DNA of 56,031 bases from a virus, in the IMG/VR virus record IMGVR_UViG_3300021171_000001, positions 1 through 56,031 of that record. One strand, given 5' to 3'. Shown in pieces: positions 10,025 to 55,835 of the stretch. Numbering within the stretch: the stretch's first letter is position 1; each line of letters begins with the position of its first letter. The notes beneath the pieces are model-generated. The model was not told the origin of the DNA and did no database searches. It saw nothing but the letters and a program-made list of their open reading frames with translations. The position numbers were made by a program, and so were the translations under genes.

Positions 10025-10101
10025 TGTGGGGGAATAAGAAGATTTCCGGCTCGCAGAACGGGTCGAGAAAGGAAGTTAAACGGCGTTCCAGGAGGAGGTA
10101 A

Positions 10102-31721: not shown

Positions 31722-32321
31722 ATGGTCCGAATTGGCACGCCTGTTCCTGCGATTCTAGAGAAAGGCGATTGGAAGAAGCCGAAGGTGGACCGCGCCCAAT
31801 TGCGCAAGATGCTCGAAGAAGGGCAGTTGATGCAGATCGAGATTGCGAATCGATTGGGAGTGACCCGAGAGCGAGTTAGGCAATTGTCGAATAAGTGGGG
31901 CTTCGGAACGGGCCGAGAGCAGGGAGCGAAGCGTAAGTTCGAGCGGATGTTGGCCGGGATGGAGGAGAATCGGTTTTACCGTAGGGCGATTGAAGAGGGA
32001 TTCGAGGTAAATTGGAGTCCCGAAGGGCCGGAATCGTTCATTGTTGGGACGAAACTAGTTCGAGTACGAAGTGCACCGAGTAAATTTATTAGTGGTTCCT
32101 ATAAAGTGATCGTACTTCGAGCACCGCTTCGACCGGCTGATATTTGCGCTTGGGAATTACCGGACGGCAGGTTTCTGATTATGCCCCAGGAATTGTGGCC
32201 GGAATCGCAGACATGCTTTCGGTTGGAGGAGCCAAAGACAACCAATGGTAGAGTGCTATCGAATGCGCATCATTACCGGGATTACATCGAGGCGTGGCAC
32301 GTTCTACGGGAGGAACCATGA
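31722..32321 (+). CDS. HTH DNA-binding protein, sigma-70 region-4-like
   Basis: MQIEIANRLGVTRERVRQLSNKWG resembles sigma-70 region 4.2. Confidence 0.5.
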   Translation: MVRIGTPVPAILEKGDWKKPKVDRAQLRKMLEEGQLMQIEIANRLGVTRERVRQLSNKWGFGTGREQGAKRKFERMLAGMEENRFYRRAIEEGFEVNWSPEGPESFIVGTKLVRVRSAPSKFISGSYKVIVLRAPLRPADICAWELPDGRFLIMPQELWPESQTCFRLEEPKTTNGRVLSNAHHYRDYIEAWHVLREEP

Positions 32322-32584
32322 AGATTTTGGAGCCGGTGGATCAGCAAATAACGATTCGTGGATCATCTCGATGGCTTGAAGTGGTTGCGGCTCTTGAGAA
32401 GTTGCCAAAAGGTTTTGCCTTGCCGGTGGAAACGGATTCGAGGAAGGAAGGTTTGGCCTTGCAGTATTTCATTTTTAACACGCACAATCGGCGCAATAAT
32501 GGAACTAAGTTTAGGGTTCAGCGTCGAGGGTTGACCGTCTTCATTAGTCACTATGAACCGCCAATCATAGGAGGAAATAGATGA
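32318..32584 (+). CDS. Hypothetical protein
   Basis: ATGA coupling; RBS GGGAGGAACC. Confidence 0.55.
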   Translation: MKILEPVDQQITIRGSSRWLEVVAALEKLPKGFALPVETDSRKEGLALQYFIFNTHNRRNNGTKFRVQRRGLTVFISHYEPPIIGGNR

Positions 32585-33072
32585 TCTTCAATACGAAACC
32601 GAAGTTGTACCGGGAATCGGAAGTCGAGGAGCCGGATGAATCGAGGAAGGAACTCGCGGTCAAGGCGAAAACCCTCTTGGGTTATTCGGTTTTGGAGCAA
32701 ACGATTCCGAATCGCTCGTCATCGGAAGTGAGCGCTGTTTTCAAGAAGTTGGGCATCGAGCCGCTGAATGAGAGGCAGGTCCAGAAATATCAACGGTGGT
32801 ATCGACAAAAGCATTCCGGGACATTCAGTTGGGAGCGTGTGCATTGGGAATCGGCGCGGATAGAGAACTATGCTGAACCGATGCCCGAATTTGTTCTCTC
32901 GCGGGCTGTCGAATTGAAGGAACATCTTCCGAACGCCGTGTTCAGCATTGAATTTCCGGTGCGGGAAGAGAGGGTCAGGCCCGATCCATTTCTAGTCATG
33001 TACTATGCCGGGATTCGATATTACATCGATGTGTGGGATGAACCGAAATTTGAAGGACGGAGGACGGTCTAG
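32581..33072 (+). CDS. Hypothetical protein
   Basis: 163-aa ORF; ATGA coupling; TAG stop 33070-33072. Confidence 0.55.
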   Translation: MIFNTKPKLYRESEVEEPDESRKELAVKAKTLLGYSVLEQTIPNRSSSEVSAVFKKLGIEPLNERQVQKYQRWYRQKHSGTFSWERVHWESARIENYAEPMPEFVLSRAVELKEHLPNAVFSIEFPVREERVRPDPFLVMYYAGIRYYIDVWDEPKFEGRRTV

Positions 33073-33081
33073 AGGATCGCA

Positions 33082-33873
33082 ATGGAGCGAATCTGCGTCG
33101 TCGGACTCGGCAAAGTCGGGCGTCCCATCCTCGGCATGCTTCGGGATAAGGGCTTCCGAGCCTTCGGTTACGATCATATCCCCAAGGATTCCGAGGTGAG
33201 TCTCGAACAGGCGGTGGATCGGACGGACGCCGCAATCTTCATTGTGCCAACCCCATCGAAGGAAGACGGGTCCTTCTCGAACGATTGTCTGCTCGACGCC
33301 CTCGGCAAGTTCAAACGCTCGATTGCCATGAAGTCGGACTATCTGTACATCATCACCAGCACCACGACGCCGGGAAGCTGCGACCAGTTCCGAGAGATTG
33401 TCGGCGACAACGTGGTCTACAAGCCGGAATTCATTCGCCTGGAATACGTCGAAGCCGACCTCCGAGCACCGTCCTTTGTGCTAATCGGCGAGCATCGAAA
33501 AGAAGCCGGAGACCGAGTCGAGAGAATCTACGAGAAGATTTCGGATGCCCCGGTCAAACGGATGTCGCTTATCGAGGCCGAACTTGCCAAGATCACGCTC
33601 AATTGTGCGCTAACCATGAAGATTTCACTTGCGAATCAACTGCATCTCGTGGCCCGGAAACTTGGGGCCGATTCCGCAAAGATTATGGATGCAGTCGGAA
33701 CCGATCCTCGGATTAACAATCGGTATCTCAAACCTGGATGGCCCTACGCGGGACCATGCCTCGATAGGGATAATCGGATGTTTCAGTACGTTGCCGAACA
33801 AGTGGGAATCGAAGCGCATCTTTCGATAGCCGCCGATTCGATCAATGCGATGATCTATGACGAAGATTTCTGA
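33082..33873 (+). CDS. Nucleotide-sugar dehydrogenase (UDP-glucose/GDP-mannose dehydrogenase family) lacking the C-terminal domain
   Basis: Rossmann motif ICVVGLGKVG. Central-domain pattern ELAKITLNCALTMKISLANQL...GTDPRINNRYLKPGWPYAGPCLDRD with the catalytic-site Cys. Only 263 aa. Confidence 0.6.
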   Translation: MERICVVGLGKVGRPILGMLRDKGFRAFGYDHIPKDSEVSLEQAVDRTDAAIFIVPTPSKEDGSFSNDCLLDALGKFKRSIAMKSDYLYIITSTTTPGSCDQFREIVGDNVVYKPEFIRLEYVEADLRAPSFVLIGEHRKEAGDRVERIYEKISDAPVKRMSLIEAELAKITLNCALTMKISLANQLHLVARKLGADSAKIMDAVGTDPRINNRYLKPGWPYAGPCLDRDNRMFQYVAEQVGIEAHLSIAADSINAMIYDEDF

Positions 33874-34633
33874 GATCGAAGCCTACTGGAACGCCAGCCC
33901 TTGCAACATTCGACATGGCGAAGGCGAAGTCGGAACCGCCTTTTGGTCGCATGGAGTATCGGAGCGCCGGTATTTCGTCGAATCGCATATCCCTGCCTTC
34001 GCGGATTTCAAAAGGTGGGATGGGAAGAAAGTTCTCGAAATAGGTGCGGGAATCGGCACCGATACGTTACAGTTCGCGAAAGCCGGTGCTTTAGTCGATG
34101 CCGTGGAACTATCGAGCCGTAGCCGAATCATCGCCATGCAACGGTTCGATGTGGAAGGACTCGGGCATCTTATTTCCATCAACCGGGTTAATTTCTACTT
34201 GGCCGACGCGGAGAAGTTCCTTCCTGATGGACCGTATGATTTGATTTATTCGTTTGGGGTCCTGCATCACACGCCGCGCCCGGAAATGGTATTGACGAAA
34301 GCGGCTCGACGCCTCGCTCCGGGCGGCGAACTTCGAGTCATGCTCTACGCTCGATGGAGTCTCAAACATCTGCTAGGGATTCAGCCGGAAGCGCAGGCGG
34401 GATGTCCGCTGGTTCGCTGGTACTCGGAACGCTCTGCGCGGCATCTCCTCGAATCATGCGGGTTTCGAGTCTTATCGATTCGAAAGGTTCACATTTTCCC
34501 GTGGCGTATCAAGGATTACGTCCAATACCGATATGTAAAGGCGTTTCCTTGGAACGTGACTCCCGACTGGCTCTTTCGGAAACTAGAACTCCATATCGGT
34601 CACCACCTTCTTATCCGTGCGGTGAAAGCGTGA
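33857..34633 (+). CDS. Class I SAM-dependent methyltransferase
   Basis: VLEIGAGIGTDT (motif I), DLIYSFGVLHH, LAPGGEL. Confidence 0.7.
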   Translation: MTKISEIEAYWNASPCNIRHGEGEVGTAFWSHGVSERRYFVESHIPAFADFKRWDGKKVLEIGAGIGTDTLQFAKAGALVDAVELSSRSRIIAMQRFDVEGLGHLISINRVNFYLADAEKFLPDGPYDLIYSFGVLHHTPRPEMVLTKAARRLAPGGELRVMLYARWSLKHLLGIQPEAQAGCPLVRWYSERSARHLLESCGFRVLSIRKVHIFPWRIKDYVQYRYVKAFPWNVTPDWLFRKLELHIGHHLLIRAVKA

Positions 34634-35655
34634 AAGCCGCCGTTGTCGTCACCACGATCCACGACTGTTCGGTTCTCCTCGACGGCTATCTCCGAAACTT
34701 CGCTAAGTTCGGGCGTGAAGCGACAATCTTCTTAATCCCTGATCGCAAAACTCCCGCATTTAACATTCCAAAAGGCGTGCTTTGCCCAGAACTCACGACT
34801 CAGTTTGATTTCCTAAATGACAGTGGATTCCGCTCGCACGATATTCCAGAGAACTCCGACAATCGGCGCAATGTCGGCTATCTGATGGCGCTTGCCGATG
34901 GAGCGGAAATGGTTGTGTCCATCGACGATGATAACTACTGCTCAGAGAATGAGGATTACTTGCAGGCGCATGAGTACGGTTTTTCAAGGTCTATGGGCTA
35001 TGAGAAAGAAGGACACTGGTATAATAATCTCGCTTTACTTGATGCTCCTCCATACCAATATCCTAGAGGATTCCCTTTTTTTGCAAGGGGAACAACAAGG
35101 TCGAGAAAACTACCGTTAACCGAATCTACTGTTAGAATCAACGCCGGGATGTGGATTGGCGATCCCGATCTAGATGCGATGAGTTGGCTGCATCTTCCAT
35201 TTCAGGCAATCCGATGCTCTAGCGAATTAGTACTTGGACCTGAAACTTGGTGCCCGATCAACTCACAGAATACAGCGGTGCATCGGGATTTGATGGGCGC
35301 GTACTATTTCGTGCGCATGACCTCGATGATGGATCGATTCGGTGATATCTTCCAGGGATATTTCGCTCTCAAAGTAGCAAAGCATATGGGCTGGACAGCC
35401 CGGTTCGGCTCTCCGGTGGTCACACATCGCCGGAACTCCCATGTCTACCTAAGGGATGTACAGAAGGAAATCGAGCCGATCCTACTCCTCGAAGAACTGC
35501 TCCCGAAACTCTTGGAGACGAAATTGACTGGCACGACGGTCGAGGAAGCGTATTTGTCTCTTTCGGACTTTGTCGAAAGCCAAGCATCGCCATTTTATTC
35601 CGAAACGGCTAGACTGATGCGCATGTGGTCGAAGGCCGTAAAGGGGATCGGATGA
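34630..35655 (+). CDS. GT-A-type glycosyltransferase, RGP/GT75-like
   Basis: GTG 34630 overlaps the stop (GTGA). VVVTTIHD...IFLIPDRKTP...NRRNVGYLMALADGAEMVVSIDDDNYC shows a DxD motif. Confidence 0.5.
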   Translation: MKAAVVVTTIHDCSVLLDGYLRNFAKFGREATIFLIPDRKTPAFNIPKGVLCPELTTQFDFLNDSGFRSHDIPENSDNRRNVGYLMALADGAEMVVSIDDDNYCSENEDYLQAHEYGFSRSMGYEKEGHWYNNLALLDAPPYQYPRGFPFFARGTTRSRKLPLTESTVRINAGMWIGDPDLDAMSWLHLPFQAIRCSSELVLGPETWCPINSQNTAVHRDLMGAYYFVRMTSMMDRFGDIFQGYFALKVAKHMGWTARFGSPVVTHRRNSHVYLRDVQKEIEPILLLEELLPKLLETKLTGTTVEEAYLSLSDFVESQASPFYSETARLMRMWSKAVKGIG

Positions 35656-36131
35656 AAACCATTCCTCTAACCCAAGGAAAGGTCGCACTGGTCGATGATG
35701 CAGATTTTGAATTTCTGTCTCAATTTAAGTGGCATCTAAAAAGACCATCCAAGAAAGCAAGAGTACTATACGCGGTCGCGCATCAACCCAACACTACAAG
35801 GAATTCGACCAAACTTAGGATGCATAGACTTTTGCTACCAGGAGCGAAAGAAGTCGATCATATCAACGGGGATGGACTCGATAATCGACGCCAGAATCTC
35901 CGTGCGGCGACGAAGCCTCAAAATATGAGCAATATGCAAAAACACCGAGACAATGAGTCTGGATTCAAGGGTGTGTCTCGACATCAGAAGCGATGGTGCG
36001 CCAGAATTAGAAATGAATTTATTGGTGTATTCCAATCTCCATTGGAAGCTGCTAAAGCTTATGATGCTGCGGCATTGGCTCTGTTCGGGGAATTCGCTAG
36101 ACTCAATTTCCCGGAGCAAAAAAATGGCTAA
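35652..36131 (+). CDS. HNH-AP2 homing endonuclease, copy 1
   Basis: ATGA coupling. IPLTQGKVALVDDADFEFL...MHRLLLPGAKEVDHINGDGLDNRRQNLR (HNH) followed by FKGVSRHQKRWCARI...AAKAYDAAALALFGEFARLNF (AP2). Confidence 0.8.
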   Translation: MKTIPLTQGKVALVDDADFEFLSQFKWHLKRPSKKARVLYAVAHQPNTTRNSTKLRMHRLLLPGAKEVDHINGDGLDNRRQNLRAATKPQNMSNMQKHRDNESGFKGVSRHQKRWCARIRNEFIGVFQSPLEAAKAYDAAALALFGEFARLNFPEQKNG

Positions 36132-37485
36132 AATTATACTTACAGGGGGTCCGTCGTTTTCTTTGTTCAACCCGAGCTTGCACGCTTCTCTCGGCTTACT
36201 CTATTTAGGCGCATCGCTTCGTGAAGCGGGCCACGAAGTTAAAATCATCGATTGTCACCGAATCTCGACCTTCGACGCCTCGGAAAATAAACTCAAGGTC
36301 AATCCCGACCTCATGGAACCGTGCGACATCCTGGGCGTCTCGATTGTGACTCCCAATGCCGAATTTGGCGGTCAACTAGCGTCCGTTTGGCCCGCCAAGG
36401 TGAAGGTAGCCGGTGGGCCGCATGTGACGTACATCATCGAAGGTCCCCACGCTCAATTCAAACAGAAGAAATATTTCGAAGGTTTCGATTTCCTGATGAC
36501 CGGAGAGTGCGAAGAATCCTTCGTCCAGTTCTGCAATATATGGCAGGCAGGCGGGGATGTAACGAGAGTGCCAGGAGTGACGTGGTTCGATGCATTCGGA
36601 GTTCACCAGCTTTACCCATCGCCGCCGCTCCCAGATGTAACGAAGATGAAGACCCCGGCCTACGACCTCTGGGGAAATTACAGCAAAGGAGGACTTCAAG
36701 TTGCCTCAATCCACGGACAATCTATCGATGCTGCTGAAAGAACTATTGGGTCCCTATGGACAGCGAGAGGATGCCCGTATGGTTGCTCTTTTTGCGCGGA
36801 TGCTAGGACCAAACTACGGGAAGAAACCTTCGACCAGATCGAAGCGGAGGTCAAAGCCCTCGCCGAAATTGGAGTAACCGCCCTCCGAGTTTGGGATGAT
36901 GTGTTGACCATTAAGGCGAAGCGGTGCCGGGAATTGGCTGCCCTGTTTCACGACTACGGGATGCTGTGGCGAGGATGGAGCCGGGTCAATCTGTTCGACT
37001 CGGAACTGTTCAAGGACCTAGCTCGCCTCGGTTGCACCGAACTCGGGTTCGGAGTCGAGCACGGCTCGGCCCGAATGCTGAAAGCCATGAACAAGGGCAC
37101 GACGCCCGAAGCGAACACTCGGGGGATTAAACTTTGCCAAGATGCCGGAATCTCGGCACGGGCGTATCTTTTGATCGGGTTTCCGGGTGAAACTTGGGAG
37201 TCGATTCAGGAAATGCAGGACTGGCTGGACACCTGCCGACCGGATGCCGCCAGTTTGCATATGTTCCAGCCGTATCCTGGATGTGAAGTGTGGAACACGC
37301 CCGAAAAATTCGGGGTTTCTATCCCACCGGATAAGTTCTCTATGATGTGGGAATTGATGGATGACGACCCGAAAACGACGGTTCTAGACTTACCGACAAT
37401 GACTACAGCAGAACTTTTCCAAGCACGTAAGAATCTGCACAACTGGATCACGGATAATATCTCTCTCCGGCTTGCGACCCGATGA
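36124..37485 (+). CDS. B12-binding-domain radical SAM enzyme
   Basis: N-terminus GLLYLGASLREAGHEVKIIDC (cobalamin-binding-domain pattern) and CPYGCSFC (C-x3-C-x2-C). Confidence 0.7.
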   Translation: MAKIILTGGPSFSLFNPSLHASLGLLYLGASLREAGHEVKIIDCHRISTFDASENKLKVNPDLMEPCDILGVSIVTPNAEFGGQLASVWPAKVKVAGGPHVTYIIEGPHAQFKQKKYFEGFDFLMTGECEESFVQFCNIWQAGGDVTRVPGVTWFDAFGVHQLYPSPPLPDVTKMKTPAYDLWGNYSKGGLQVASIHGQSIDAAERTIGSLWTARGCPYGCSFCADARTKLREETFDQIEAEVKALAEIGVTALRVWDDVLTIKAKRCRELAALFHDYGMLWRGWSRVNLFDSELFKDLARLGCTELGFGVEHGSARMLKAMNKGTTPEANTRGIKLCQDAGISARAYLLIGFPGETWESIQEMQDWLDTCRPDAASLHMFQPYPGCEVWNTPEKFGVSIPPDKFSMMWELMDDDPKTTVLDLPTMTTAELFQARKNLHNWITDNISLRLATR

Positions 37486-38186
37486 CGACGAAGCCCCTTG
37501 GCCGAAAAAACTATGGCAGCATTCCGCATCTTCCGGACAGCCGAATGGGACCAGGGGACCACCATTGCCACGAAGGACAGGAAGAAATTTGCACGAATCG
37601 GTTACGGGACCGTCACGATCTTGTAATCTGCACGGAGAAACTTGACGGTTCGAACGTCGGCGTAGCAAGAATCGGAGATGATATTTTGGCTCTTGGCCGT
37701 GCCGGGTATCTCGCTCAAACTTCCAAGTTCATACAGCATCAATGGTTTGCTGATTGGGTTAGAAAGAATGAGGATCGTTTTCGGTCTGCGCTACAGCCCG
37801 GCCAGCGTATTGTCGGAGAATGGCTTGCTCAAGCGCACGGCACTAGATATAAACTCACGCATGAGCCATTCGTAGTATTCGATCTCATGGAAGATGACCG
37901 GCGCTTGCCCTACTCGGCCATCGAACAGCTACAAGATCGTTTTGTGCTCGCGCATGTGATCCAGAAGGGCGGTCCTATTTGTGTAGGACTTGGATTTGAA
38001 GAATTGGAGCGTGGCGGAAGAAACGGATTTCATGGGGCCATTGATCCGGTTGAAGGGATGGTATGGAGGATTGAGCGTAAAGGTGAATTCGATTTCATGG
38101 CGAAGTTCGTTCGTCCGACTAAAGTTGACGGAGCCTATCTACCGGAAGTTTCTGGCCTTGATCCTGTATGGAATTGGACGCCATGA
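37482..38186 (+). CDS. ATP-dependent RNA ligase-like nucleotidyltransferase (PF09414 / Rnl2-5-like)
   Basis: YGSIPHLPDSRMGPGD, motif I EKLDGSN, GEW, EGMVWR, KFVR. Confidence 0.6.
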   Translation: MTTKPLGRKNYGSIPHLPDSRMGPGDHHCHEGQEEICTNRLRDRHDLVICTEKLDGSNVGVARIGDDILALGRAGYLAQTSKFIQHQWFADWVRKNEDRFRSALQPGQRIVGEWLAQAHGTRYKLTHEPFVVFDLMEDDRRLPYSAIEQLQDRFVLAHVIQKGGPICVGLGFEELERGGRNGFHGAIDPVEGMVWRIERKGEFDFMAKFVRPTKVDGAYLPEVSGLDPVWNWTP

Positions 38187-38893
38187 AACTGAGTATCATC
38201 TGTGCAGGCCGAAACGATGGGCATTGCGGAGACTTCATCGACCGGATGAACTGCTCCTTCGAAACGCTTCCATCCGATGCCGAAATCATCATGGTCGAAT
38301 GGAATCCTCCCGAGGATCGGCCTCCGCTTGCCTCGACGATCCGGCGACGGGGCGTTCGGGTTATTACCGTTTCACGGGAATTGCACAATCAGATGCATGG
38401 GCATGACTGGCTTCCGTTCTTCGAATATCGGGCCAAGAATGTCGGCATTCGGAGGGCGCACGGCAACTGGATTTTATCGATGAATCCCGACATCATTTTA
38501 GGGCAGGAAATGCTCGAACGTCTCGGGTACGACTTCGATTACCATTGCTGCTACGAGGCTCCGAGACATGATATCAAAGACGGGAAACTCGTTCAGATTA
38601 CAAGTGGGCCGGGAGACTTCGTTCTGATGCATCGGGACAAGTGGTTCGACCTCCGAGGGTATCTCGATATTGTCAGTTATTCGCATATCGATTCGCTGCT
38701 TATATGGAATGCGGAGTCTATGGGCATTCCAAAGGTCGAACTTCCCTGCCCGATCTTCCATCAGGAGCACGACCGTTCGGTTCACAAAGGCCGAATGACG
38801 ATCCATTCCTCGGACATCCACTATTTCGTTGGGCAAAAGAATGACGAGGATTGGGGACTCGCCGACATCCATTTACCGGAGATCACGACATGA
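38183..38893 (+). CDS. GT-A (GT2-like) glycosyltransferase
   Basis: MKLSIICAGRND ... AKNVGIRRAHGNWILSMNPD. Confidence 0.5.
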   Translation: MKLSIICAGRNDGHCGDFIDRMNCSFETLPSDAEIIMVEWNPPEDRPPLASTIRRRGVRVITVSRELHNQMHGHDWLPFFEYRAKNVGIRRAHGNWILSMNPDIILGQEMLERLGYDFDYHCCYEAPRHDIKDGKLVQITSGPGDFVLMHRDKWFDLRGYLDIVSYSHIDSLLIWNAESMGIPKVELPCPIFHQEHDRSVHKGRMTIHSSDIHYFVGQKNDEDWGLADIHLPEITT

Positions 38894-39360
38894 AGGAAAT
38901 TACTTTAACGCAAGGTAAAGTGGCCCTTGTTGATGACGAGGATTTTGAATACCTTTCTCGATTCAATTGGCATGTTAAAAGAACTAATCGGAAATGGAAA
39001 GTTCTTTACGCTGTTGCACACGAACCAAACACGAAGAGGAATTCCACTAAGTTGAGAATGCACCGCCTTTTATTGCCGGACGCTAAAGAGATCGACCATA
39101 TCAACGGGGATGGTTTGGATAACAGACGTTGCAATCTTCGTCCAGCAACTCATCGTCAAAACCTAGCCAAGTCCAGGCGTCCACTGGGGGCTAGTGGCTT
39201 AATTGGAGTGGATCAATTATATGGAAAATGGAGAGCCAGAATTACTGTCAATGGGATAGGACATCATCTTGGGATGTTTACTTCAAAAGAAGAAGCGGTA
39301 TCAGCCTACAATGCAGCCGCACAAAAATTTAACGGTGAATTTGCTAGGACAAATTTATGA
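38890..39360 (+). CDS. HNH-AP2 homing endonuclease, copy 2
   Basis: ITLTQGKVALVDDEDFEYL...MHRLLLPDAKEIDHINGDGLDNRRCNLR ... WRARITVNG...AVSAYNAAAQKFNGEFARTN; paralog of 35652..36131. Confidence 0.8.
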   Translation: MKEITLTQGKVALVDDEDFEYLSRFNWHVKRTNRKWKVLYAVAHEPNTKRNSTKLRMHRLLLPDAKEIDHINGDGLDNRRCNLRPATHRQNLAKSRRPLGASGLIGVDQLYGKWRARITVNGIGHHLGMFTSKEEAVSAYNAAAQKFNGEFARTNL

Positions 39361-40334
39361 AATGTGGACTTTTATATCCCTGCGTTTCTGCTCTTGTTGA
39401 AAAAATGGCGTCCATATTTCCTGATCTTTGTGTAATCGGACCTCCGTGCGATGCGCTGTACAGTTGGGACAAGAGAATCCTGAATCTGGCAAAAGCGAAG
39501 GACAGAGTGAAAGAATGGCAGGAAGTCGGGCTTGACCTTCATTTCGAGGAAAAGCCGTACTCGGAGTGCGATTTCTCGAAGTTTGATCTCCTGATCGAAT
39601 CGGTCGAGACTTTCGATTATGCCGCCGACTGGAAGAACCATTGTCACCGGGTCGAATGCCCGATTCTGGTCTTTGTGTGCTGGTACGACGGCCCGGATTA
39701 CTTGCCCTCGAACTACCGGGAGAAGATCAAAAACCTACCCATCAAAGTCGGGATGCCGTCCATTGTCCCATCCTGGAAGTCAGCCTATCCCCAAGCGGAG
39801 TTCGGTCCACTTCCAGTCGGCGATTGGTGGTTCGAGCGGGAATGGACTGGCCTTCGGGAAGAGGCACTATTCGTTCTCGCCGGGAAGGACCTATGGCGAC
39901 CGGCAGACAAATCGGTCTGTGGGGTTGATCTATTCGAACAACTCTCGGAACGCTTCCCGGGACGGATGCACCACCACGACGGGGCGACTGAATTTAAGAC
40001 CGCGAAGCAGATGGCCGAAATGTATAGCGAGTACCGGGCCTTCCTGAATCTCGATAATGCAGCCGGTAGACCGCTATCGACTTCCTTCACGGAGGCTTTG
40101 GCAGCCGGTATGCCGGTCGTAGCTCGGGACCTTCCGGGACTCAACTATAAGGACTATATCGATGGAAACGGAACCTACACAGAGAATTTCGATACAATGT
40201 GCGATTTCATCGACAATTGTTTTTCGAGTATTGGATTCGCCAGGACGTGCAGTATGTACAGTCGAGCCATCGCTCGGGCGGCATTCTCGGTGGCGAATGT
40301 TCGACCCTACTACGAAATCGGAAGGTCGGTATGA
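39357..40334 (+). CDS. GT-B (GT1/GT4-like) glycosyltransferase
   Basis: The C-terminal FTEALAAGMPVVARDLPG matches the E-x7-E-region pattern EA-x-A-x-G-x-PVV. Confidence 0.5.
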   Translation: MKCGLLYPCVSALVEKMASIFPDLCVIGPPCDALYSWDKRILNLAKAKDRVKEWQEVGLDLHFEEKPYSECDFSKFDLLIESVETFDYAADWKNHCHRVECPILVFVCWYDGPDYLPSNYREKIKNLPIKVGMPSIVPSWKSAYPQAEFGPLPVGDWWFEREWTGLREEALFVLAGKDLWRPADKSVCGVDLFEQLSERFPGRMHHHDGATEFKTAKQMAEMYSEYRAFLNLDNAAGRPLSTSFTEALAAGMPVVARDLPGLNYKDYIDGNGTYTENFDTMCDFIDNCFSSIGFARTCSMYSRAIARAAFSVANVRPYYEIGRSV

Positions 40335-40495
40335 CCGACGAGCAGGATAGCCTAAAGGAACTGTACGAACACGCAATCGAGGAATGGGAGTCCGGCAAGA
40401 CCCTCGATGAGATCGGCGAAAAGTATGGGTTTACAGGCAGCACAGTTCTACGTATCCTTCAATTTTTGGGCGTGCCCAAGAAGGAAATTCAATGA
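40331..40495 (+). CDS. Small HTH protein
   Basis: TLDEIGEKYGFTGSTVLRILQFLGV; ATGA coupling on both sides. Confidence 0.5.
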   Translation: MTDEQDSLKELYEHAIEEWESGKTLDEIGEKYGFTGSTVLRILQFLGVPKKEIQ

Positions 40496-41091
40496 GAAAT
40501 GAAATGACCGGCCAGCGCTTCGGTAGACTAGTTGTATTATACCCAACAGAACGTCGGAAGAGTGAAAGTGTCATATGGAAATGCCACTGTGATTGCGGTA
40601 ACGCGACCGAAGTGGTTAGCACGGCTCTACGACGTGGACATACCAAGAGTTGCGGATGTCTCCATCAGGAAAAGATGCTTGATGGTATCGGCAGAACGCA
40701 TGGACACAATTCGACCAAATTAGGGAAGAGTAGAACGTATCAATCATGGGATGGAATTATCCAACGCTGTTGTAATCCGAATTGTGTTGCGTATCTCAAA
40801 TATGGTGCCCGTGGGATTAAGGTCTGTGAACGATGGAGGGATTTCAAAAACTTCTTGGCCGATATGGGCGAGCGCCCACTCGACAAAACCATCGACCGAA
40901 TAGATTCGAAGAAAGGCTACTATCCAGAAAATTGTAGATGGGCCACTAGATTAGAACAAGGTCAGAATACATCACGGAATATTCGAATTACAATGAATGG
41001 GAAGACCTTGGTCCTAAGTGAATGGGCCAGAAGACTAAATGTACATAGGAATACATTGGGATATAGATATCATCGCGGAATATGGCCGTGA
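40492..41091 (+). CDS. Homing-endonuclease-like DNA-binding protein (degenerate HNH type), copy 1
   Basis: GQRFGRLVV...CHCDCGN...SCGC ... YGARGIKVCERW-DFKNFLADMGERP...IDRIDSKKGYYPENCRWATRLEQ-QN. Confidence 0.5.
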   Translation: MRNEMTGQRFGRLVVLYPTERRKSESVIWKCHCDCGNATEVVSTALRRGHTKSCGCLHQEKMLDGIGRTHGHNSTKLGKSRTYQSWDGIIQRCCNPNCVAYLKYGARGIKVCERWRDFKNFLADMGERPLDKTIDRIDSKKGYYPENCRWATRLEQGQNTSRNIRITMNGKTLVLSEWARRLNVHRNTLGYRYHRGIWP

Positions 41092-41906
41092 TAAGTATAC
41101 TTTTACCTACTCGCAAACGGCCAAAGGAATTACGTCGCATGGTCGAATCGGTTCGAGATACAGCCAAGAATGAGGTAGACATTTGTCTATATATAGACGA
41201 CGATGACCCGCTTAGTATTCCCGTCGCAGAAGAACTAGGGTTGGCCTACAAAATCGGTCCACGAATCAGAAAAATTACTCAGGCGTGGAATGAAATACTT
41301 CCGATTGCGCGTGGTGAAATTTTAGAACAGGGTAACGATGATGTTCGCTACTGTACATCCGGTTGGGATGTAATGGTGCAAGAAGCCTTCGATGAAGTGC
41401 CGGACAAAATTATGTGTCTACATGGCCTTGACCGCTTCGGACATGGATCAAATTTTGGTCCCCATGCCTTCACTAGTAAACGCTGGACCGATTGTTTAGG
41501 TTACTTTATTGCACCGTACTTTAGCAGTGACTTTGGAGATGCGTGGCTTTGCGAATTGGCGAATATGATTGGTCGCCGTCGGTACCTTCCTTTTATCATT
41601 GAACATTTACATTTCTCGCAAGGGATGGCCGAGATCGATGAGAATACCGCCGACCGATTACAACGGCACCGGGAGGATGACCCCGACACTCTATACTATA
41701 GCCCGGCAATGCAAGCCGAACGGCAGCGTGACGCTCAGAAACTCGCAAAACTAATGGATAAGCGGCAGGATACGAAGGGCTGGTGTCCGCCACACAACAA
41801 TATTCGAAGCGCCGGGATGTGTCCGAAGTGCGAGAGCCTATCGACTGTGGCGGTCGGAGTGGGGAAGTTCCATTGCAATTGTTGTTCATACCTATTTACG
41901 AGGTAG
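41082..41906 (+). CDS. GT-A glycosyltransferase with a C-terminal zinc ribbon
   Basis: ISILLPTRKRPKEL ... LYIDDDD ... CPKCESLSTVAVGVGKFHCNCCS. Confidence 0.5.
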   Translation: MAVISILLPTRKRPKELRRMVESVRDTAKNEVDICLYIDDDDPLSIPVAEELGLAYKIGPRIRKITQAWNEILPIARGEILEQGNDDVRYCTSGWDVMVQEAFDEVPDKIMCLHGLDRFGHGSNFGPHAFTSKRWTDCLGYFIAPYFSSDFGDAWLCELANMIGRRRYLPFIIEHLHFSQGMAEIDENTADRLQRHREDDPDTLYYSPAMQAERQRDAQKLAKLMDKRQDTKGWCPPHNNIRSAGMCPKCESLSTVAVGVGKFHCNCCSYLFTR

Positions 41907-41908
41907 CA

Positions 41909-42469
41909 ATGCCTAGACTAAGCACAAAGAACAAATGCCCTCATTGCGAAGGCATGAAATGTTGGTATGCCAAAACGTGTAGGACATGTAGGGATAAAAT
42001 CCGTATAGGTTGGAACGGACCAAAATGGAGTCAAAAGCTCGGGCCAATATCACTTACCAAACACGGCCATAACAACGCATCCGGTAAAAGTCCGACATAC
42101 AGATCGTGGAATGCAATGATCCAGCGTTGTAGAAATGAGAATTCTAAGGAGTATTACAACTATGGAGGCCGGGGAATTAAAGTCTGCGAAAGATGGTTTA
42201 AATTTGAACATTTTTTGGCTGATATGGGCGAACGTCCAACTGGACTTGGGCGCGGCTTTACCTTAGACCGTTATCCGAATCAGAATGGAAACTACGAACC
42301 AGGAAATTGCCGATGGGCTACATGGACCGAGCAAATGAACAACAGCAGGAGAAATATCCGAGTTGAATTCCAGGGTCAAAATCTGACTTTAGGAGAATGG
42401 GCCAGAGAACTTAATGTCGATTACAAATCTCTACAGAGGCAACATAGCGCGGGGAAGTGGCCGACATGA
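41909..42469 (+). CDS. Homing-endonuclease-like DNA-binding protein, copy 2
   Basis: YGGRGIKVCERWFKFEHFLADMGERP...LDRYPNQNGNYEPGNCRWATWTEQ-NN; paralog of 40492..41091. Confidence 0.5.
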   Translation: MPRLSTKNKCPHCEGMKCWYAKTCRTCRDKIRIGWNGPKWSQKLGPISLTKHGHNNASGKSPTYRSWNAMIQRCRNENSKEYYNYGGRGIKVCERWFKFEHFLADMGERPTGLGRGFTLDRYPNQNGNYEPGNCRWATWTEQMNNSRRNIRVEFQGQNLTLGEWARELNVDYKSLQRQHSAGKWPT

Positions 42470-43140
42470 AGTGGGAGATTTTGATATTAACAATGCCCAC
42501 TCGCTATGAATTTCTACGGCGTTTAATGATGTGTCTCGCCCCCCAATGCTCCGGTAATCCGAATATTTCGGTCAGGATTCGTACCTGCGATCCTAAATAT
42601 ACTTTGGGCGAAAACCGCGATATGTTGAGAAGGGCGTCGGAAGCACATTATTGTTCATTTTGTGACGATGACGATTTAGTATCTACCGACTATATATCTT
42701 CGATTCTTCCGCTAATGGACGGCGTAGATTATATCGGCCATAATTTGCAGTGTTATGTGGACGGCGAACCTCTTGGAAAAGTGACCCGTCATTCGTTGGT
42801 TTATAGGGGGTGGTATGAAACTGATGAATTCTATGCACGGGACATTTCGCATATCAATCCGATACGTCGGGACCTTGCGCTACTCGAACCAATGGAAGGC
42901 GGGCACGGAGAGGACGTTCGGTGGGCCGACCGGATGCGGGCGAGAGGTGTTCTGAAAACGGAACGCTATATAGATCGGGTTCTATACCACTACTATTTCC
43001 GAACCCGAAAGAACATGGGTAAGCCATGCCCGAAGTGCGGCAGTACGTCCACCGTGCTCGTCGGCGAAGGGACAGTATGCAACGCCTGTAGCCTCTCGTT
43101 CGACCGGCATCCAGAGCAAAAATCTTGCCTTTGGACCTAA
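42466..43140 (+). CDS. GT-A glycosyltransferase with a C-terminal zinc ribbon
   Basis: ILILTMPTRYEFL ... FCDDDD ... CPKCGSTSTVLVGEGTVCNACS. Confidence 0.5.
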   Translation: MKWEILILTMPTRYEFLRRLMMCLAPQCSGNPNISVRIRTCDPKYTLGENRDMLRRASEAHYCSFCDDDDLVSTDYISSILPLMDGVDYIGHNLQCYVDGEPLGKVTRHSLVYRGWYETDEFYARDISHINPIRRDLALLEPMEGGHGEDVRWADRMRARGVLKTERYIDRVLYHYYFRTRKNMGKPCPKCGSTSTVLVGEGTVCNACSLSFDRHPEQKSCLWT

Positions 43141-43183
43141 AATCGGTATAATCGGCCCATCGAAGCAAGGCTAGGGAGGGATA

Positions 43184-43223
43184 CGGGAGCGGTGCAGGGC
43201 CAGACCGCTCTCGTATTTCATTT
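43184..43223 (+). terminator. Intrinsic terminator closing the sugar-modification operon
   Basis: CGGGAGCGGT-gcagggccag-ACCGCTCTCG-TATTTCATTT. Confidence 0.65.
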
Positions 43224-46165: not shown

Positions 46166-46729
46166 GTGGCAATGACAGCCGAGGCACGCGCTTTACAATC
46201 CGCAAAGATGAAGGAAAGTTGGATCAAACGCAAGGCCGAAAAGCAGCAAGTTCCCGCCGATCCTGCCCTCCGAGAAGCGATGGCCAAAGTTCCGATGAAT
46301 GCCCCCATTGAACGCGGAACGATGGTTGCCGAAGTGAAGGATGAAGTAATTCCGACCGAAGCGTTGCCGGTATATCCCGTATCCCATTTCGTCGATCACA
46401 TCACCATCGAAGTCGATTGGGAACACATTCCGATGAACGAAGGGCAGCAATTCTACGCGCATCTGAAATCGGAATTCGAGAACGCCGGTAAAATCCTGAA
46501 TGCGCGGTCGATGCAGAGAACTTCCGGGTACGATTGTTTTATGTGTGGCAAGCATTTCGAGGGCCAGCCGAAGTATACCGACCACAGTTATAAAGACCCG
46601 ACAACCGGCTTAGTTCCAACAATATACTGCTGCGGCGAGCATTGCGTGATTCTTTTTAATGCAAAAGTCATCCAAGAACGACATCAGCGCGAACTAGCTC
46701 GTGCTGCCGCCGAACGGGAAAATGCCTAA
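46166..46729 (+). CDS. Hypothetical protein upstream of terL (small-terminase candidate by position only)
   Basis: GTG 46166 lies 7 nt after GGAGGA (the track start is 46151); C-terminal CFMCGK...CCGEHC. Confidence 0.4.
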   Translation: MAMTAEARALQSAKMKESWIKRKAEKQQVPADPALREAMAKVPMNAPIERGTMVAEVKDEVIPTEALPVYPVSHFVDHITIEVDWEHIPMNEGQQFYAHLKSEFENAGKILNARSMQRTSGYDCFMCGKHFEGQPKYTDHSYKDPTTGLVPTIYCCGEHCVILFNAKVIQERHQRELARAAAERENA

Positions 46730-54830: not shown

Positions 54831-55835
54831 ATGGCACTGACTGTCGGAACGGGAATCAATCAACCTAGTGCTCTTTTTGTTAACACCCTCTCGTCAATCG
54901 CGCAGAAACTAATATTTCCGAAAATTTCTGATTTAGTTTTTCAGCCGAGTCCTACTTTTAGCTTTCTTAACCAGTACGCCAAGAAGTATTCGGCAGGTGC
55001 GGAAATAGTATATCCGTTATTGACTACAAAGATAACAACTCGCGGCTCCTACTGGGGCGACCAGCTTTTGCCGACCTCGGCAATCGATGCGATTCAGCCC
55101 GCCGATCAGGTGTGGCGCGGCTATTTCCAGGCGACTACATTGCCGGTGATGGATATTGTGATCGGGCGCGGCGGGCCGGTGGGTCTCGATCTCGTGAAGA
55201 CTTACGTGCAGGCTGCCGCTGGTTCGATGCTCGACATGCTCGCCGAGGCAGTGGCCGGAAATTCGCCGTTTAACTCTTCGACCGACCTTGATTCGATTAG
55301 TTCTTGGGTTCTATCGACGACCAACACAATTGCCGGAATCAATCGAACCACGAACACGTTCTGGCAGCCGCAGCCGAACTCGGCCATCGGCGGTCACTTG
55401 ACACCGCAAAAGCTGCTCATTCCGTACTTCCAGGCGACCTATGGCTACGATGAGCCGAACCTGCTGATTCTGAACAACACGGACTTCGCGAACTTCGAGT
55501 CGGCGTTCACCGCGAATTCGAACTCGGCGGCTTCGACGACTATCATCCGAGCTTCGGACAATTACGCGGACACGGCTCCCATCCAGACTTCGTTCCGGTA
55601 CCATATGCGGTTCAAGAACGCCGTGGTGCTCGCGGATCAGCATTTCCCGGCTGGCACTGGGTATTTGTTGAACACGAAATACATCTGGATGATTTACAAC
55701 ATGGGAAGCTTCTTCCGCATGACGCCGTGGATCATGCCGTCGAACCAGGATGTGATTACGTCACGTATCCATCTCATCGCGCAGCTCGGGTGTAATCGGC
55801 CAATCGGTCAGATCGCCCTAACTACTTTAAGCTAA
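54831..55835 (+). CDS. Major capsid protein
   Basis: 334 aa; RBS AAAAGGAG; lies after the scaffold candidate; size and composition are typical of HK97-fold capsid proteins. Confidence 0.65.
   Translation: MALTVGTGINQPSALFVNTLSSIAQKLIFPKISDLVFQPSPTFSFLNQYAKKYSAGAEIVYPLLTTKITTRGSYWGDQLLPTSAIDAIQPADQVWRGYFQATTLPVMDIVIGRGGPVGLDLVKTYVQAAAGSMLDMLAEAVAGNSPFNSSTDLDSISSWVLSTTNTIAGINRTTNTFWQPQPNSAIGGHLTPQKLLIPYFQATYGYDEPNLLILNNTDFANFESAFTANSNSAASTTIIRASDNYADTAPIQTSFRYHMRFKNAVVLADQHFPAGTGYLLNTKYIWMIYNMGSFFRMTPWIMPSNQDVITSRIHLIAQLGCNRPIGQIALTTLS

Follow-up and report, generated by a model that had tools for sequence, protein, structure and literature searches.

The window analysed here (the whole 56,031-nucleotide stretch of viral DNA) contains a chain of 14 genes, g1 to g14 (33082-43140), all on the plus strand, that we read as a cassette for building a glycan in the cytoplasm. 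The acceptor would most likely be one or several structural proteins of the virion; this is our best single guess, held with slightly less than even confidence. Which sugar is made, how g5, g1 and g2 act on it, in what order the steps run and what serves as acceptor are inferred.

A gene chain upstream of the structural block

The 14 open reading frames are joined through overlaps at 12 of their 13 junctions (nine are 4-nt overlaps of the ATGA/GTGA type, the other three measure 8, 10 and 17 nt), and the remaining junction is a 2-nt gap. The start codons chosen are backed by about 12 related contigs, in which the homologous proteins have matching N-termini. The chain ends at a terminator-like plus-strand hairpin (approximately 43178-43219) with a 16-bp stem (-29.7 kcal/mol, z = -4.2 against shuffled sequences), followed by a U-rich stretch, so that both the overlapping chain and the strong terminator at 43184 of the preliminary description are borne out. 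Because positions 1-127 of the window are identical to 55905-56031, the genome of this 56-kb soil phage is taken as circularly assembled. Its unique length is 55,904 bp, of which the operon occupies 18.0%, as had been estimated (about 18 percent).

Three upstream genes (u2 to u4; 31722-33072, plus strand) overlap one another, and the last ends 9 nt 5' of g1, so that they probably share a transcription unit with g1-g14. The product of u2 (31722-32321) has a sigma-70 region 4-like HTH (Sigma70_r4, 1.3e-4), and the closest relative, L005, is the only one to keep the three genes 5' of the cassette. On the other side, a plus-strand packaging and structural block begins 1.7 kb past the cassette, with its first open reading frame at 44834. 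Pfam and PHROG scans of the 66 other open reading frames recovered terminase, portal, capsid, Erf, GNAT and many HNH genes; these scans revealed neither an integrase nor a lysogeny gene, and judged by this the phage looks lytic. No hydrophobic segment was found in any of the 14 cassette proteins (maximum KD19 1.49), which argues that all are soluble and that both the pathway and its acceptor are cytoplasmic.

A recurrent core and its insertions

Comparison of the cassette across about 20 related contigs shows that eight genes recur (g1, g2, g3, g5, g7, g9, g12 and g14). The presence or position of the other six (HNH genes g4, g8, g11 and g13, HTH gene g10 and RNA ligase gene g6) changes between relatives, and we therefore consider these six mobile or accessory. 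The idea of an operon for sugar activation, tailoring and transfer stands, but the 14 genes do not appear to be the single set first proposed; they are better described as an eight-gene module with six insertions. Within the module, g5, g9, g12 and g14 are present in every related contig of about 55 kb whose fetched stretch covers their position, g3 and g7 in most of these contigs, whereas g1 and g2 are missing from some relatives and are gained or lost jointly every time. This co-occurrence, together with the g12+g14 fusions and recurring gene combinations described below, supports one functional module. Since the cassette is present in every relative recovered, there is no natural knockout for comparison.

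The four endonuclease-like genes reported earlier are indeed of this kind, and are mobile homing endonuclease genes. Free-standing HNH_3 enzymes are predicted for g4 (35652-36131, 159 aa; PF13392, 2.2e-8), which is missing from the equivalent position in most relatives, and for its 61% identical paralogue g8 (38890-39360, 156 aa; PF13392, 6.7e-8), whose occurrence varies. Another paralogous pair (53% identity) is formed by the HNH-family genes g11 (40492-41091, 199 aa; HNH PHROG 374, 8.5e-66), with homologues at differing positions among relatives, and g13 (41909-42469, 186 aa), which varies in both presence and position. The 54-aa HTH protein g10 (40331-40495), with a weak Sigma70_r4 match (4.8e-3), is found in L006 and L007 only, adjoining HNH or g11-like genes, and seems to travel with the endonuclease genes. 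Finally, g6 (37482-38186, 234 aa) is the ATP-dependent RNA-ligase-like nucleotidyltransferase that had been announced (RNA_ligase PF09414, 2.1e-18; PHROG 38169, 4e-51; KLDGSN motif); among the relatives, just the two closest, L005 and L006, have it.

Proposed making and transfer of the sugar

The preliminary description had presented g3 (34630-35655, 341 aa, GTG start) as an RGP/GT75-like GT-A enzyme. The family is correct (PF03214, 5.5e-14, across the entire length), but we think that a transferase role is not, because g3 is 46% identical to MtdL (PDB 7XPR/7YUA, 1e-67), a crystallised GDP-L-galactose/L-fucose pyranose-to-furanose mutase, and retains 19 of 20 of its functional residues (catalytic, Mn2+ and GDP-binding; PMC9937993). 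These include the DDD motif, H287, R159, R257 and the GDP-selective T13 and S86; the only change is N42 to K. Most likely, then, g3 is a GDP-hexose mutase, predicted to be GDP-specific, that would supply the donor: the host would provide a GDP-L-hexopyranose like that of L-fucose or L-galactose, and g3 would turn it into the GDP-furanose, a rare form with a five-membered ring.

The class B (B12-binding) radical SAM identity proposed for g5 (36124-37485, 453 aa) is confirmed by PF04055 (1.1e-19) and PF02310 (2.7e-8), both exceeding gathering scores, and by the CPYGCSFC motif at residues 217-224. No other gene of the cassette is as well conserved as g5 (75-96% identity in related phage contigs of about 55 kb and metagenome proteins). 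Acidobacteriota chromosomes hold copies at 70-73% identity, a GalT-family nucleotide-sugar enzyme adjoining the chromosomal copy, and in phage contigs of 108-170 kb homologues at 51-55% identity are flanked by a TylC3-type NDP-sugar C-methyltransferase on one side and a GDP-mannose 4,6-dehydratase plus epimerase/reductase pair on the other; radical SAM relatives in larger phages thus adjoin GDP-6-deoxyhexose genes. All NCBIfam matches of g5 are far under cut-off, which tells against the full scheme, and its best PDB match is AprD4. The enzyme would modify a sugar carbon, C-methylation being most likely and dehydration or rearrangement possible.

Two further genes probably form an optional tailoring pair. 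As first described, g1 (33082-33873, 263 aa) is a truncated NDP-sugar 6-dehydrogenase-like protein of the UDP-glucose/GDP-mannose dehydrogenase family (PF00984, UDPG_MGDP_dh central domain, 5.6e-24; PF03721, N domain, 3.1e-12; PHROG 9148, 1e-39; TIGR03026, 6e-46, under that model's cut-off). It has the NAD-binding domain and a central domain with the catalytic Cys, its AGPCLDRD aligning to the catalytic GGSC(F/L)PKD, and stops shortly after; Pfam and structure alignments find no C-terminal NDP-binding domain, and the length is 262-273 aa in 8 relatives. It aligns comparably to UGDH (3vtf, 1.5e-24) and to GDP-mannose dehydrogenase (1mfz, 1.7e-23). The class I SAM methyltransferase g2 (33857-34633, 258 aa), also correctly recognised, matches Methyltransf_23 (1.5e-17) and PHROG 22502 (6.5e-39), and its nearest NCBIfam models, all under cut-offs, are the O-/carboxyl-methyltransferases UbiG, BioC and CmoM. 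We suggest that g1 would oxidise the primary alcohol of the sugar to an acid, possibly after transfer of the sugar since the NDP-binding domain is absent, and that g2 would methylate the product. A GDP-sugar donor is supported by the match of g3 to MtdL, the alignment of g1 to GDP-mannose dehydrogenase and the neighbours of g5 homologues.

The case for transfer is strongest for the two GT-A enzymes with C-terminal zinc ribbons. The GT2-type g12 (41082-41906, 274 aa; PHROG 14945, 1.7e-28) gives an AlphaFold2 model of pLDDT 92.4, for which Foldseek retrieves K4CP, the GDP-fucosyltransferase WrtF, TarS and TarP in the PDB (E ~1e-8; generic GT-A similarity with TM-scores of about 0.5) and a Mimivirus GT2 in BFVD (TM 0.78, 38% identity). 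DxDD, NDD and four Cys are invariant in its family, as are DDDD and four Cys in that of g14 (42466-43140, 224 aa; glycosyltransferase PHROG 14775, 4.4e-31). Both carry the invariant CxxC...CNxC ribbon, as had been noticed, and the two ribbons are homologous (hhalign, 1.5e-10). Domains like g12 and g14 are fused in about 10 metagenomic proteins from other phages, one of the two ribbons being lost, and the two enzymes would thus act as a physically coupled pair. The GT-B (GT4-like) assignment of g9 (39357-40334, 325 aa) is supported weakly and for the C-terminal half only (Glyco_trans_1_4 and Glyco_trans_1_2, E ~1e-3, under gathering scores; 7e-4 in a PDB profile search to GT4 C-terminal domains, e.g. 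TreT and TarM), so that we call it putative. A GT2-like g7 (38183-38893, 236 aa), by contrast, could not be confirmed: this conserved protein has no match in Pfam, PHROG or NCBIfam, and aligns to the g12 family with E = 0.0028 (hhalign, 11% probability, 159 columns) and to heparosan synthase with E = 0.13 (PDB profile search), and its single-sequence AlphaFold2 model has pLDDT 38; it is possibly a divergent GT-A. With g9 putative and g7 possible, we propose that g12, g14, g9 and perhaps g7 would build a short hetero-oligosaccharide on an intracellular acceptor. Two unrelated phage contigs, of 59 kb and 157 kb, again combine a g12-like GT-A, a GT-B and a UGDH, with a g14-like GT-A as extra partner in L024 and a g2-like methyltransferase in the 59-kb L025, where a 57% identical g2 copy adjoins the g12-like gene and a full-length UGDH.

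Such enzymes could also make or modify a small molecule (a glycosylated metabolite) or a host macromolecule (protein or RNA) targeted during takeover, in place of a structural glycan. The only characterised bacterial GT75 mutases, MtdL and Hyg20, indeed come from nucleoside/aminoglycoside antibiotic pathways (PMC9937993), AprD4, like class B radical SAM enzymes generally, is typical of natural-product sugar tailoring, and the closest relatives have the RNA ligase within the operon. However, most relatives lack that ligase, the cassette has no aglycone-building gene (PKS, NRPS, nucleoside biosynthesis), homologous glycosyltransferase cassettes are located in virion modules, and four transferases conserved across the phage family suggest a polymer or protein acceptor. 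We give this scenario very little credence.

What the glycan may be attached to

Virion-protein glycosylation or host-glycan remodelling had been put forward together; we retain the former as the preferred reading and the latter as a rival. The virion is favoured because homologues of g14 adjoin capsid genes in actinophages: Mycobacterium phage LittleE gp15 lies immediately 3' of the major capsid gene, with three further glycosyltransferases behind it, and in Actinoplanes phage phiAsp2, Pas33-35 (a glycosyltransferase homologous to g14, a glycosyltransferase fused to an O-methyltransferase, and a glycosyltransferase) come after tail and head genes. It is also favoured because the modules of L024 and L025 sit among structural genes (e.g. 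Mu F, HCP) and the cassette itself precedes the structural block, and because the viral structures that g12 matches best are those of GT2 enzymes from giant viruses. On the other side, the window's glycosyltransferases have no significant similarity (hhalign E = 0.0024 to 0.42) to Corndog gp36-38, the cluster O enzymes linked to virion modification (PMC11600133). The Ser/Thr-rich virion proteins of the preliminary description are there (Ser+Thr 18-26% in capsid and fibre-like proteins), but this weighs little, and no C-terminal tail obviously rich in Ser/Thr is seen in the capsid protein.

Alternatively, the soluble transferases might decorate a cytoplasm-facing precursor of the host envelope (lipid-linked O-antigen, an EPS or capsule unit, a teichoic-acid-like polymer) with the tailored furanose, blocking superinfection or keeping progeny from sticking to cell debris, as prophage TarP and other serotype-converting enzymes do. 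EPS is typically built from uronic acids and sugars of the GDP-fucose type, wall-teichoic-acid (TarS, TarP), O-antigen (WrtF) and capsule (K4CP) enzymes are among the top PDB neighbours of g12, and one Acidobacteriota contig has MBOAT and AlgX-type polysaccharide O-acetylation genes in the vicinity of the g5 homologue that is the closest from a cellular source. The window encodes no flippase, polymerase, polyprenyl-phosphate transferase or any membrane protein; this counts against the idea, yet is compatible with it since soluble GT-A enzymes such as TarP modify wall polymers. The matches of g12 are however generic, homologous cassettes of other phages lie within virion modules, and a phage that looks lytic would gain less from surface conversion. 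We regard an envelope acceptor as unlikely.

Finally, the zinc-ribbon enzymes might bind phage DNA after replication and attach the glycan with its furanose to a base, so that the genome would be shielded against restriction or CRISPR. Zinc ribbons frequently bind nucleic acid, and that of g14 resembles DNA-binding GATA-type fingers (5.5e-6); but the ribbon is also similar to ribosomal and, as we take it, TFIIB-type ribbons, which bind RNA or protein, and the fusions do with one. All known phage DNA glycosylation starts from a hydroxylated base, which either a ThyA homologue or a C5-methyltransferase together with a TET-like oxygenase provides. No base-hydroxylating enzyme, polymerase or dNMP kinase was detected among 80 open reading frames, and in the 66 outside the cassette Pfam and PHROG revealed neither a polymerase nor a ThyA-like enzyme, TET/JBP or DNA methyltransferase, as had been stated for hydroxymethylase and polymerase; this in turn favours virion proteins. 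Radical SAM enzymes are usually slow, and a B12-dependent step would be easier to reconcile with hundreds of sites on proteins than with the roughly 10^4 that the DNA of each genome would offer. The glycans known from phage DNA are nonetheless furanoses, and one family, Pootjesviridae (e.g. Rhizobium phage RL38J1), encodes its own NDP-sugar mutase (PMC13326640); phage GT-A enzymes glycosylating 5hmC are similar to TarP (bioRxiv 10.1101/2023.12.21.572611). In Streptomyces BE-cluster phages, g12 homologues belong to the DNA replication module, where a glycosyltransferase pair and an RfaE-like nucleotidyltransferase are surrounded by genes for replication and nucleotide metabolism, which, like the GATA-like ribbon, speaks against a virion acceptor. 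All in all, DNA glycosylation strikes us as improbable.

We thus return to virion proteins as the preferred acceptor. Their glycosylation is known in mycobacteriophages and giant viruses, to which the cassette can be likened; in cluster O mycobacteriophages, according to PMC11600133, citing Freeman et al. 2023, tandem glycosyltransferases and an O-methyltransferase modify capsid and tail-tube proteins. If this reading is correct, the glycan would coat the particle, for instance masking it or altering its adsorption or stability.

A gene chain, its conserved core and its insertions

The fourteen genes of the cassette at 33082-43140 on the + strand (g1 to g14, numbered 5' to 3') are indeed chained as the preliminary description proposed, since 12 of the 13 junctions overlap, nine of them by the 4 nt of ATGA or GTGA and the others by 8, 10 and 17 nt, leaving one 2-nt gap; the ORF starts that we chose agree with the N-termini of homologues in related contigs. 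The estimate that the cassette takes up about 18 percent of the genome was accurate (18.0%), and the strong terminator placed behind it can be recognised in a 16-bp hairpin (about 43178-43219, -29.7 kcal/mol, z = -4.2) that has a U-rich stretch behind it. Three mutually overlapping genes (31722-33072) stop 9 nt ahead of g1, and the chain probably begins further upstream than this gene. The packaging and structural block, whose first + strand ORF is at 44834, follows 1.7 kb beyond the end of the cassette.

The first 127 bases of the window are identical to the last 127 (55905-56031), which means that the contig is a circular assembly (or ends in a short terminal repeat) and that 55,904 of its bp are unique. 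The phage, known only from metagenomes, encodes an intein-bearing large terminase, a small terminase, a portal, a major head protein, an Erf-type recombinase and many HNH endonucleases, and no tRNA gene was found in the window. The intein of the large terminase (gene at 46701-49544, +) includes a LAGLIDADG endonuclease domain (PF14528 4.5e-16, PF14890 8.8e-8); in the relatives the terminase appears as two adjoining tblastn pieces with no insert between them, which is consistent with the absence of the intein there. HNH homing endonucleases are unusually dense in the window: four genes lie inside the cassette, and no fewer than six PHROG HNH families are represented elsewhere (for example at 10-414, +, and 20715-21209, -). 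A GNAT acetyltransferase (PF00583 4.5e-5; 5119-5628, +) lies in the structural and tail block directly after a 941-aa protein, and the genome also yields a PHROG "esterase/lipase" match.

Conservation was followed on tblastn maps of about 35 loci from related contigs, obtained with g3, g5 and the portal protein as probes, many of them being parts of genomes of about 55 kb. In every related ~55-kb contig whose retrieved part spans their position, four genes (g5, g9, g12 and g14) are present; g3 is absent from two contigs, as is g7 from two, and g1 and g2 are always either both present or both absent. The transferases are 33% to 97% identical among relatives. The presence and position of g4, g8, g10 (a 54-aa HTH protein), g11 and g13 vary, and these genes behave like free-standing homing endonucleases. 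The four genes described earlier as endonuclease-like are in fact two paralogous pairs of HNH homing endonucleases, g4/g8 (61% identity) and g11/g13 (53%). The assignment of g6 as an RNA-ligase-type nucleotidyltransferase was also correct (PF09414 2e-18). We considered g6 as the sugar-nucleotidyltransferase of the pathway and rejected this idea, the gene being restricted to the two closest relatives.

When the 10-kb region was compared by megablast with 50,697 phage records, no close phage relative came up. The portal probe gave 22 loci, and no natural knockout (a relative without the cassette) was found among them: in each relative whose upstream sequence reaches far enough, g12 and g14 are in place or the cassette occupies another site in the genome. 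The combination of a GT-B enzyme, a g12-like GT-A enzyme and a full-length dehydrogenase recurs in two unrelated phage contigs, L024 (157-kb), where a g14-like GT-A accompanies it, and L025 (59-kb), where a g2-like methyltransferase does.

Enzymes that would make the sugar donor

The RGP/GT75 assignment of g3 stands (PF03214 5.5e-14, over the whole protein), whereas its reading as a glycosyltransferase most likely does not, because g3 resembles the mutase MtdL. It matches the MtdL crystal structures (PDB 7XPR and 7YUA) at E = 1e-67, with 46% identity over 309 aligned residues and full-length homology spanning residues 3-318. MtdL is a GT75 enzyme that converts GDP-L-galactopyranose or GDP-L-fucopyranose to the furanose form (PMC9937993). 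When the 20 MtdL residues assigned in that paper to Mn2+ coordination, GDP binding, sugar binding and catalysis were mapped onto g3, 19 proved identical (including D109-D111, H287, R159, R257, S228-Q229, D260, T13 and S86), the sole change being N42 to Lys. Mn2+ is bound in GT75 enzymes by the DxD motif and a conserved His, with Arg159 and Arg257 at the anomeric carbon and beta-phosphate (PMC9937993); aligned with these MtdL positions (D109-D111, H287, R159 and R257) are D99-D100-D101, H266, R146 and R236 of g3. According to its authors, T13 and S86 of MtdL favour GDP over UDP (PMC9937993), and of the three GDP-selectivity positions Thr13, Asn42 and Ser86 g3 keeps the Thr and the Ser, which predicts that it is selective for GDP rather than UDP. 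Because of the strength of the MtdL match and the identity of 19 of the 20 functional residues, we think that g3 is best read, on sequence grounds, as a donor-forming mutase yielding GDP-L-hexofuranose and not as a transferase.

Like MtdL and Hyg20 (bacterial GT75 mutases, in one family with plant UAM, that interconvert the pyranose and furanose forms of GDP-L-galactose or GDP-L-fucose), g3 keeps the DDD motif and the Mn2+ ligand corresponding to His287. Unlike MtdL, this predicted mutase is phage-encoded and about 35 residues shorter, and has Lys in place of Asn42, the contact to guanine O6; it also sits in a glycosyltransferase cassette rather than in an antibiotic cluster. Its closest cellular relatives are acidobacterial. 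PHROGs v4 has no family for g3, g7 or g9 and gives a weak match for g5, and our literature search for a GT75 or RGP enzyme in phages found nothing relevant. Synechococcus phage S-T4 has a GT75-like protein annotated as hypothetical (gp110, 31% identical to g3), which lies within gp104-gp119 in the company of a phosphoheptose isomerase, two nucleotidyltransferases, a methyltransferase, an epimerase and three or four glycosyltransferases.

The family assignment of g1, a truncated UDP-glucose/GDP-mannose dehydrogenase, is confirmed by its NAD-binding and central domains (PF03721 46.9 bits, PF00984 84.5 bits), and the Cys of its AGPCLDRD motif aligns with the catalytic Cys of the UDP-glucose dehydrogenase 3vtf and of the GDP-mannose dehydrogenase 1mfz. 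Since the protein stops right after the central domain, at residue 263, it lacks the entire C-terminal NDP-sugar-binding domain (PF03720), which is absent from eight relatives as well. One could suspect a decaying pseudogene; we reject this, because the eight relatives keep the same 262-273-aa form at 57-100% identity, so that the truncation is conserved. Full-length dehydrogenases (384-404 aa) occur only in more distant phages. The next gene, g2, encodes a class I SAM methyltransferase, as had been suggested (Methyltransf_23 1.5e-17), and the strict co-occurrence of the two genes would fit an oxidation to a uronic acid followed by methylation.

The preliminary description also recognised in g5 a B12-binding radical SAM enzyme, and both domains exceed their cut-offs: the Radical_SAM domain PF04055, which contains the CxxxCxxC cluster motif (CPYGCSFC, residues 217-224), scores 71.7 bits against 29.5, and the N-terminal cobalamin-binding domain PF02310 (residues 20-134) scores 34.1 against 32.1. 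No functionally defined subfamily (PhpK, HpnR, BchE, AprD4 and others) claims the protein, all 29 of 29 NCBIfam hits falling far below their cut-offs; the best family is PhpK (123.8 bits against 600) and the best solved structural relative is AprD4. Most characterised class B radical SAM enzymes are methyltransferases; AprD4, the nearest solved structure, is a sugar diol dehydratase. With the class B enzymes acting on sugars or related substrates (GenK, Fom3, AprD4) g5 shares the N-terminal B12-binding domain, the CxxxCxxC core and the genomic company of nucleotide-sugar enzymes; unlike them, it reaches no curated family cut-off. A literature search on B12 radical SAM enzymes in phage glycosylation found nothing relevant.

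At 75-96% identity among relatives, g5 is the most conserved protein of the cassette, and it forms its own highly conserved clade common to phages and Acidobacteriota. Copies at 70-73% identity are found in chromosomes of Acidobacteriota MAGs (L053-L057 and L021, contigs up to 894 kb), where their neighbours are a gene for a GalT-family nucleotide-sugar enzyme and common housekeeping genes. The acidobacterial relatives of g5 and g3 suggest that the host belongs to this phylum and that host and phage have a history of gene exchange. In phage contigs of 108-170 kb, homologues at 51-55% identity have sugar genes of four sorts as neighbours, which encode a GDP-mannose 4,6-dehydratase, an epimerase/reductase, a TylC3-type NDP-sugar C-methyltransferase and a 2OG oxygenase. 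These neighbours, taken with the GDP signature of g3 and the likeness of g1 to GDP-mannose dehydrogenase, are the reason why the pathway seems to us to be centred on GDP-linked L-hexoses or 6-deoxyhexoses.

Two of the homologous loci have peculiarities of their own. The 170-kb phage contig L022 has two paralogous B12 radical SAM genes (7307-8740 and 10001-11440, 51% and 54% identical to g5), which share a sugar cluster with genes for a 2OG oxygenase, a TylC3-type C-methyltransferase, a GDP-mannose dehydratase and an epimerase. In the 119-kb viral contig L017 (about 9076-10001) the radical SAM homologue is split by an intein-like insert exactly within the CxxxCxxC motif (junction …SLWTARGC/IVAGTLVTLHDG…VHPVHN…), and a GT75 mutase homologue (38% identity) follows directly after the split gene.

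Glycosyltransferases and their possible acceptor

The two GT-A enzymes with C-terminal zinc ribbons, g12 and g14, are glycosyltransferases as expected (PHROG 1.7e-28 and 4.4e-31). The AlphaFold2 model of g12, built from an alignment of 62 database protein sequences (pLDDT 92.4), has a predicted GT-A fold whose Foldseek neighbours in the PDB, at E of about 1e-8, are the K4CP chondroitin polymerase, the GDP-fucosyltransferase WrtF, TarS and TarP; its best match among viral models (BFVD) is a Mimivirus GT2 (TM 0.78, 38% identity). DxDD and NDD are invariant in the g12 family and DDDD is invariant in g14, for which the Pfam GT2 score is below the cut-off. The C-termini of both proteins are homologous CxxC...CNxC zinc ribbons, and about ten proteins retrieved with the g12 family profile are fusions of a g12-like and a g14-like domain with a single terminal ribbon, which implies that g12 and g14 work together.

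The other two transferase assignments fared less well. For g9, described as a GT-B enzyme, the C-terminal region alone (about residues 211-319) matches this fold, with a Pfam E of about 1e-3 (below the cut-off) and a PDB profile match of 7e-4, which makes it a candidate for this fold; similarity to the GT-B of L025 is likewise weak and C-terminal (E = 0.005), and tblastn found no match to g9 in cultured phages. The GT2-like reading of g7 is likewise weak: profile searches gave no family match, hhalign against the g12 family gave E = 0.0028 at 11% probability, the best PDB profile match has E = 0.13, the single-sequence AlphaFold2 model has a pLDDT of 38, and comparison with the g14 family and with an L025 neighbour found nothing.

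Because none of the 14 proteins has a membrane-spanning segment, we think that the acceptor (the molecule receiving the sugar) is met in the cytoplasm. We give virion proteins somewhat less than an even chance of being this acceptor, and regard a host envelope polymer as an unlikely one. The gene positions of homologues favour virion proteins: in Mycobacterium phage LittleE the g14 homologue gp15 comes after the capsid gene and before three more glycosyltransferases, in Actinoplanes phage phiAsp2 Pas33-35 come after tail and head genes, and the module of L024 and L025 has structural genes around it. Capsid and tail-tube proteins of cluster O mycobacteriophages are modified by a set of three glycosyltransferases and one O-methyltransferase (PMC11600133).

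Several observations count against the virion proteins. No similarity between the cassette transferases and Corndog gp36-38, the cluster O enzymes to which PMC11600133 ties this modification, was found by tblastn at E < 0.01, and hhalign gave E = 0.0024 to 0.42 at low probability. The earlier remark that virion proteins are Ser/Thr-rich holds in that their composition is moderately enriched, but a Ser/Thr-rich tail is absent from the capsid protein, whose gene is at 54831-55835. The g12 homologues of Streptomyces BE phages lie in the replication module and adjoin an RfaE-like nucleotidyltransferase, and the g14 ribbon resembles GATA fingers. In two Streptomyces phages, Faust (genes 78-80) and Jay2Jay (genes 37-39), a tandem pair of glycosyltransferases and an RfaE-like nucleotidyltransferase sit inside a DNA replication and nucleotide-metabolism module, and their target could be DNA; a literature search on DNA modification in Streptomyces BE phages found nothing relevant.

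For the window phage itself, DNA as the acceptor seems to us decidedly improbable. Known phage DNA glycosylation always starts from a hydroxylated pyrimidine, made by dedicated enzymes (PMC13326640; bioRxiv 10.1101/2023.12.21.572611). In agreement with the preliminary description, which saw no hydroxymethylase or polymerase in the genome, the 14 cassette genes and 66 other ORFs, searched at Pfam E <= 1e-3 and PHROGs E <= 1e-5, gave no match to a ThyA-like enzyme, a TET/JBP oxygenase, a DNA methyltransferase, a polymerase or a nucleotide kinase. One could still imagine a post-replicative glycosylation of the phage's own DNA by the cassette that needs no hydroxymethyl- or hydroxy-pyrimidine precursor, g5 or the transferases functionalising a canonical base and the zinc-ribbon GT-A pair binding DNA and attaching a tailored L-hexofuranose glycan. 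We see only a very slim chance of this; if true, it would be a new path to hypermodified DNA in a phage relying on the host replisome. A small molecule or another host macromolecule as the acceptor has, in our opinion, little probability.

Relation to known systems and significance

Leaving the acceptor aside, the cassette can be compared with three kinds of system. It resembles the virion cassettes of actinobacteriophages (Corndog gp35-38, cluster O; LittleE gp15-21, cluster J; phiAsp2 Pas33-35) in that a tailed phage carries a SAM methyltransferase together with tandem soluble glycosyltransferases; LittleE gp15 (30% identity, 8e-15) and phiAsp2 Pas33 (37.5%, 1.6e-31) are homologues of g14, and modelled g12 resembles Pas34. 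Unlike them, it adds the GT75 mutase, the B12 radical SAM enzyme and the truncated dehydrogenase, lies just outside the structural block and not inside it, has transferases without detectable similarity to those of Corndog, and probably belongs to a phage of Acidobacteriota rather than Actinobacteria.

In chloroviruses and Mimiviridae, the machinery that glycosylates capsids and fibrils includes virus-encoded cytoplasmic GT-A enzymes, sugar-nucleotide enzymes and methyltransferases, which decorate virion proteins with unusual methylated glycans; a Mimivirus GT2 is, as noted, what g12 matches best in BFVD. These giant viruses are eukaryotic and use other sugars, and we know of no GT75 mutase or cobalamin radical SAM enzyme in their machinery.

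The third group comprises the phage DNA glycosylation clusters (T4 alpha- and beta-GT, the arabinofuranosyl-5hoC systems of RB69 and DLP3, RL38J1, and the C5-MT/5mYOX/GT clusters). These join a phage nucleotide-sugar supply to GT-A or GT-B enzymes and make mono- to trisaccharides (PMC13326640; bioRxiv 10.1101/2023.12.21.572611), and that of RL38J1 includes a UDP-galactopyranose mutase, of the pyranose-furanose type (PMC13326640). However, they need a ThyA-like hydroxylase or hydroxymethylase, or a C5-methyltransferase with a TET-like oxygenase, none of which is detectable in the window, and the predicted mutase of the window is of the Mn2+-dependent GT75 type, not the FAD-dependent Glf type. 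The cassette works like the actinophage and giant-virus systems, with a nucleotide-sugar logic that resembles the DNA glycosylation clusters, and is not a demonstrable member of any experimentally defined system. Its distinctive parts are the GT75 GDP-sugar mutase, the cobalamin radical SAM enzyme shared with Acidobacteriota, the dehydrogenase minus its nucleotide-binding domain and the zinc-ribbon GT-A pair.

Virus-encoded glycosylation of particles or DNA alters their recognition by host defences, by immune systems and by the virus's own receptors, and few phage glycosylation systems are understood. The Mn2+-dependent GT75 mutase, which has no PHROGs v4 family, and the cobalamin radical SAM enzyme, with its weak match there, are new phage chemistry, and together they imply a furanose sugar that is rare and heavily tailored. 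Should the virion be the acceptor, its glycan would to our knowledge be the first on a virus particle to be tailored by a radical SAM enzyme, and the soluble mutase, radical SAM enzyme and fused GT-A pair would offer a tractable enzyme set for glyco-engineering; should it be DNA, a new modification pathway would be at hand. The chemistry of the cassette is unusual and directly testable, and the cassette is not a one-off, being conserved across the whole ~55-kb phage family, with parts that recur in phage contigs of 59 to 170 kb.
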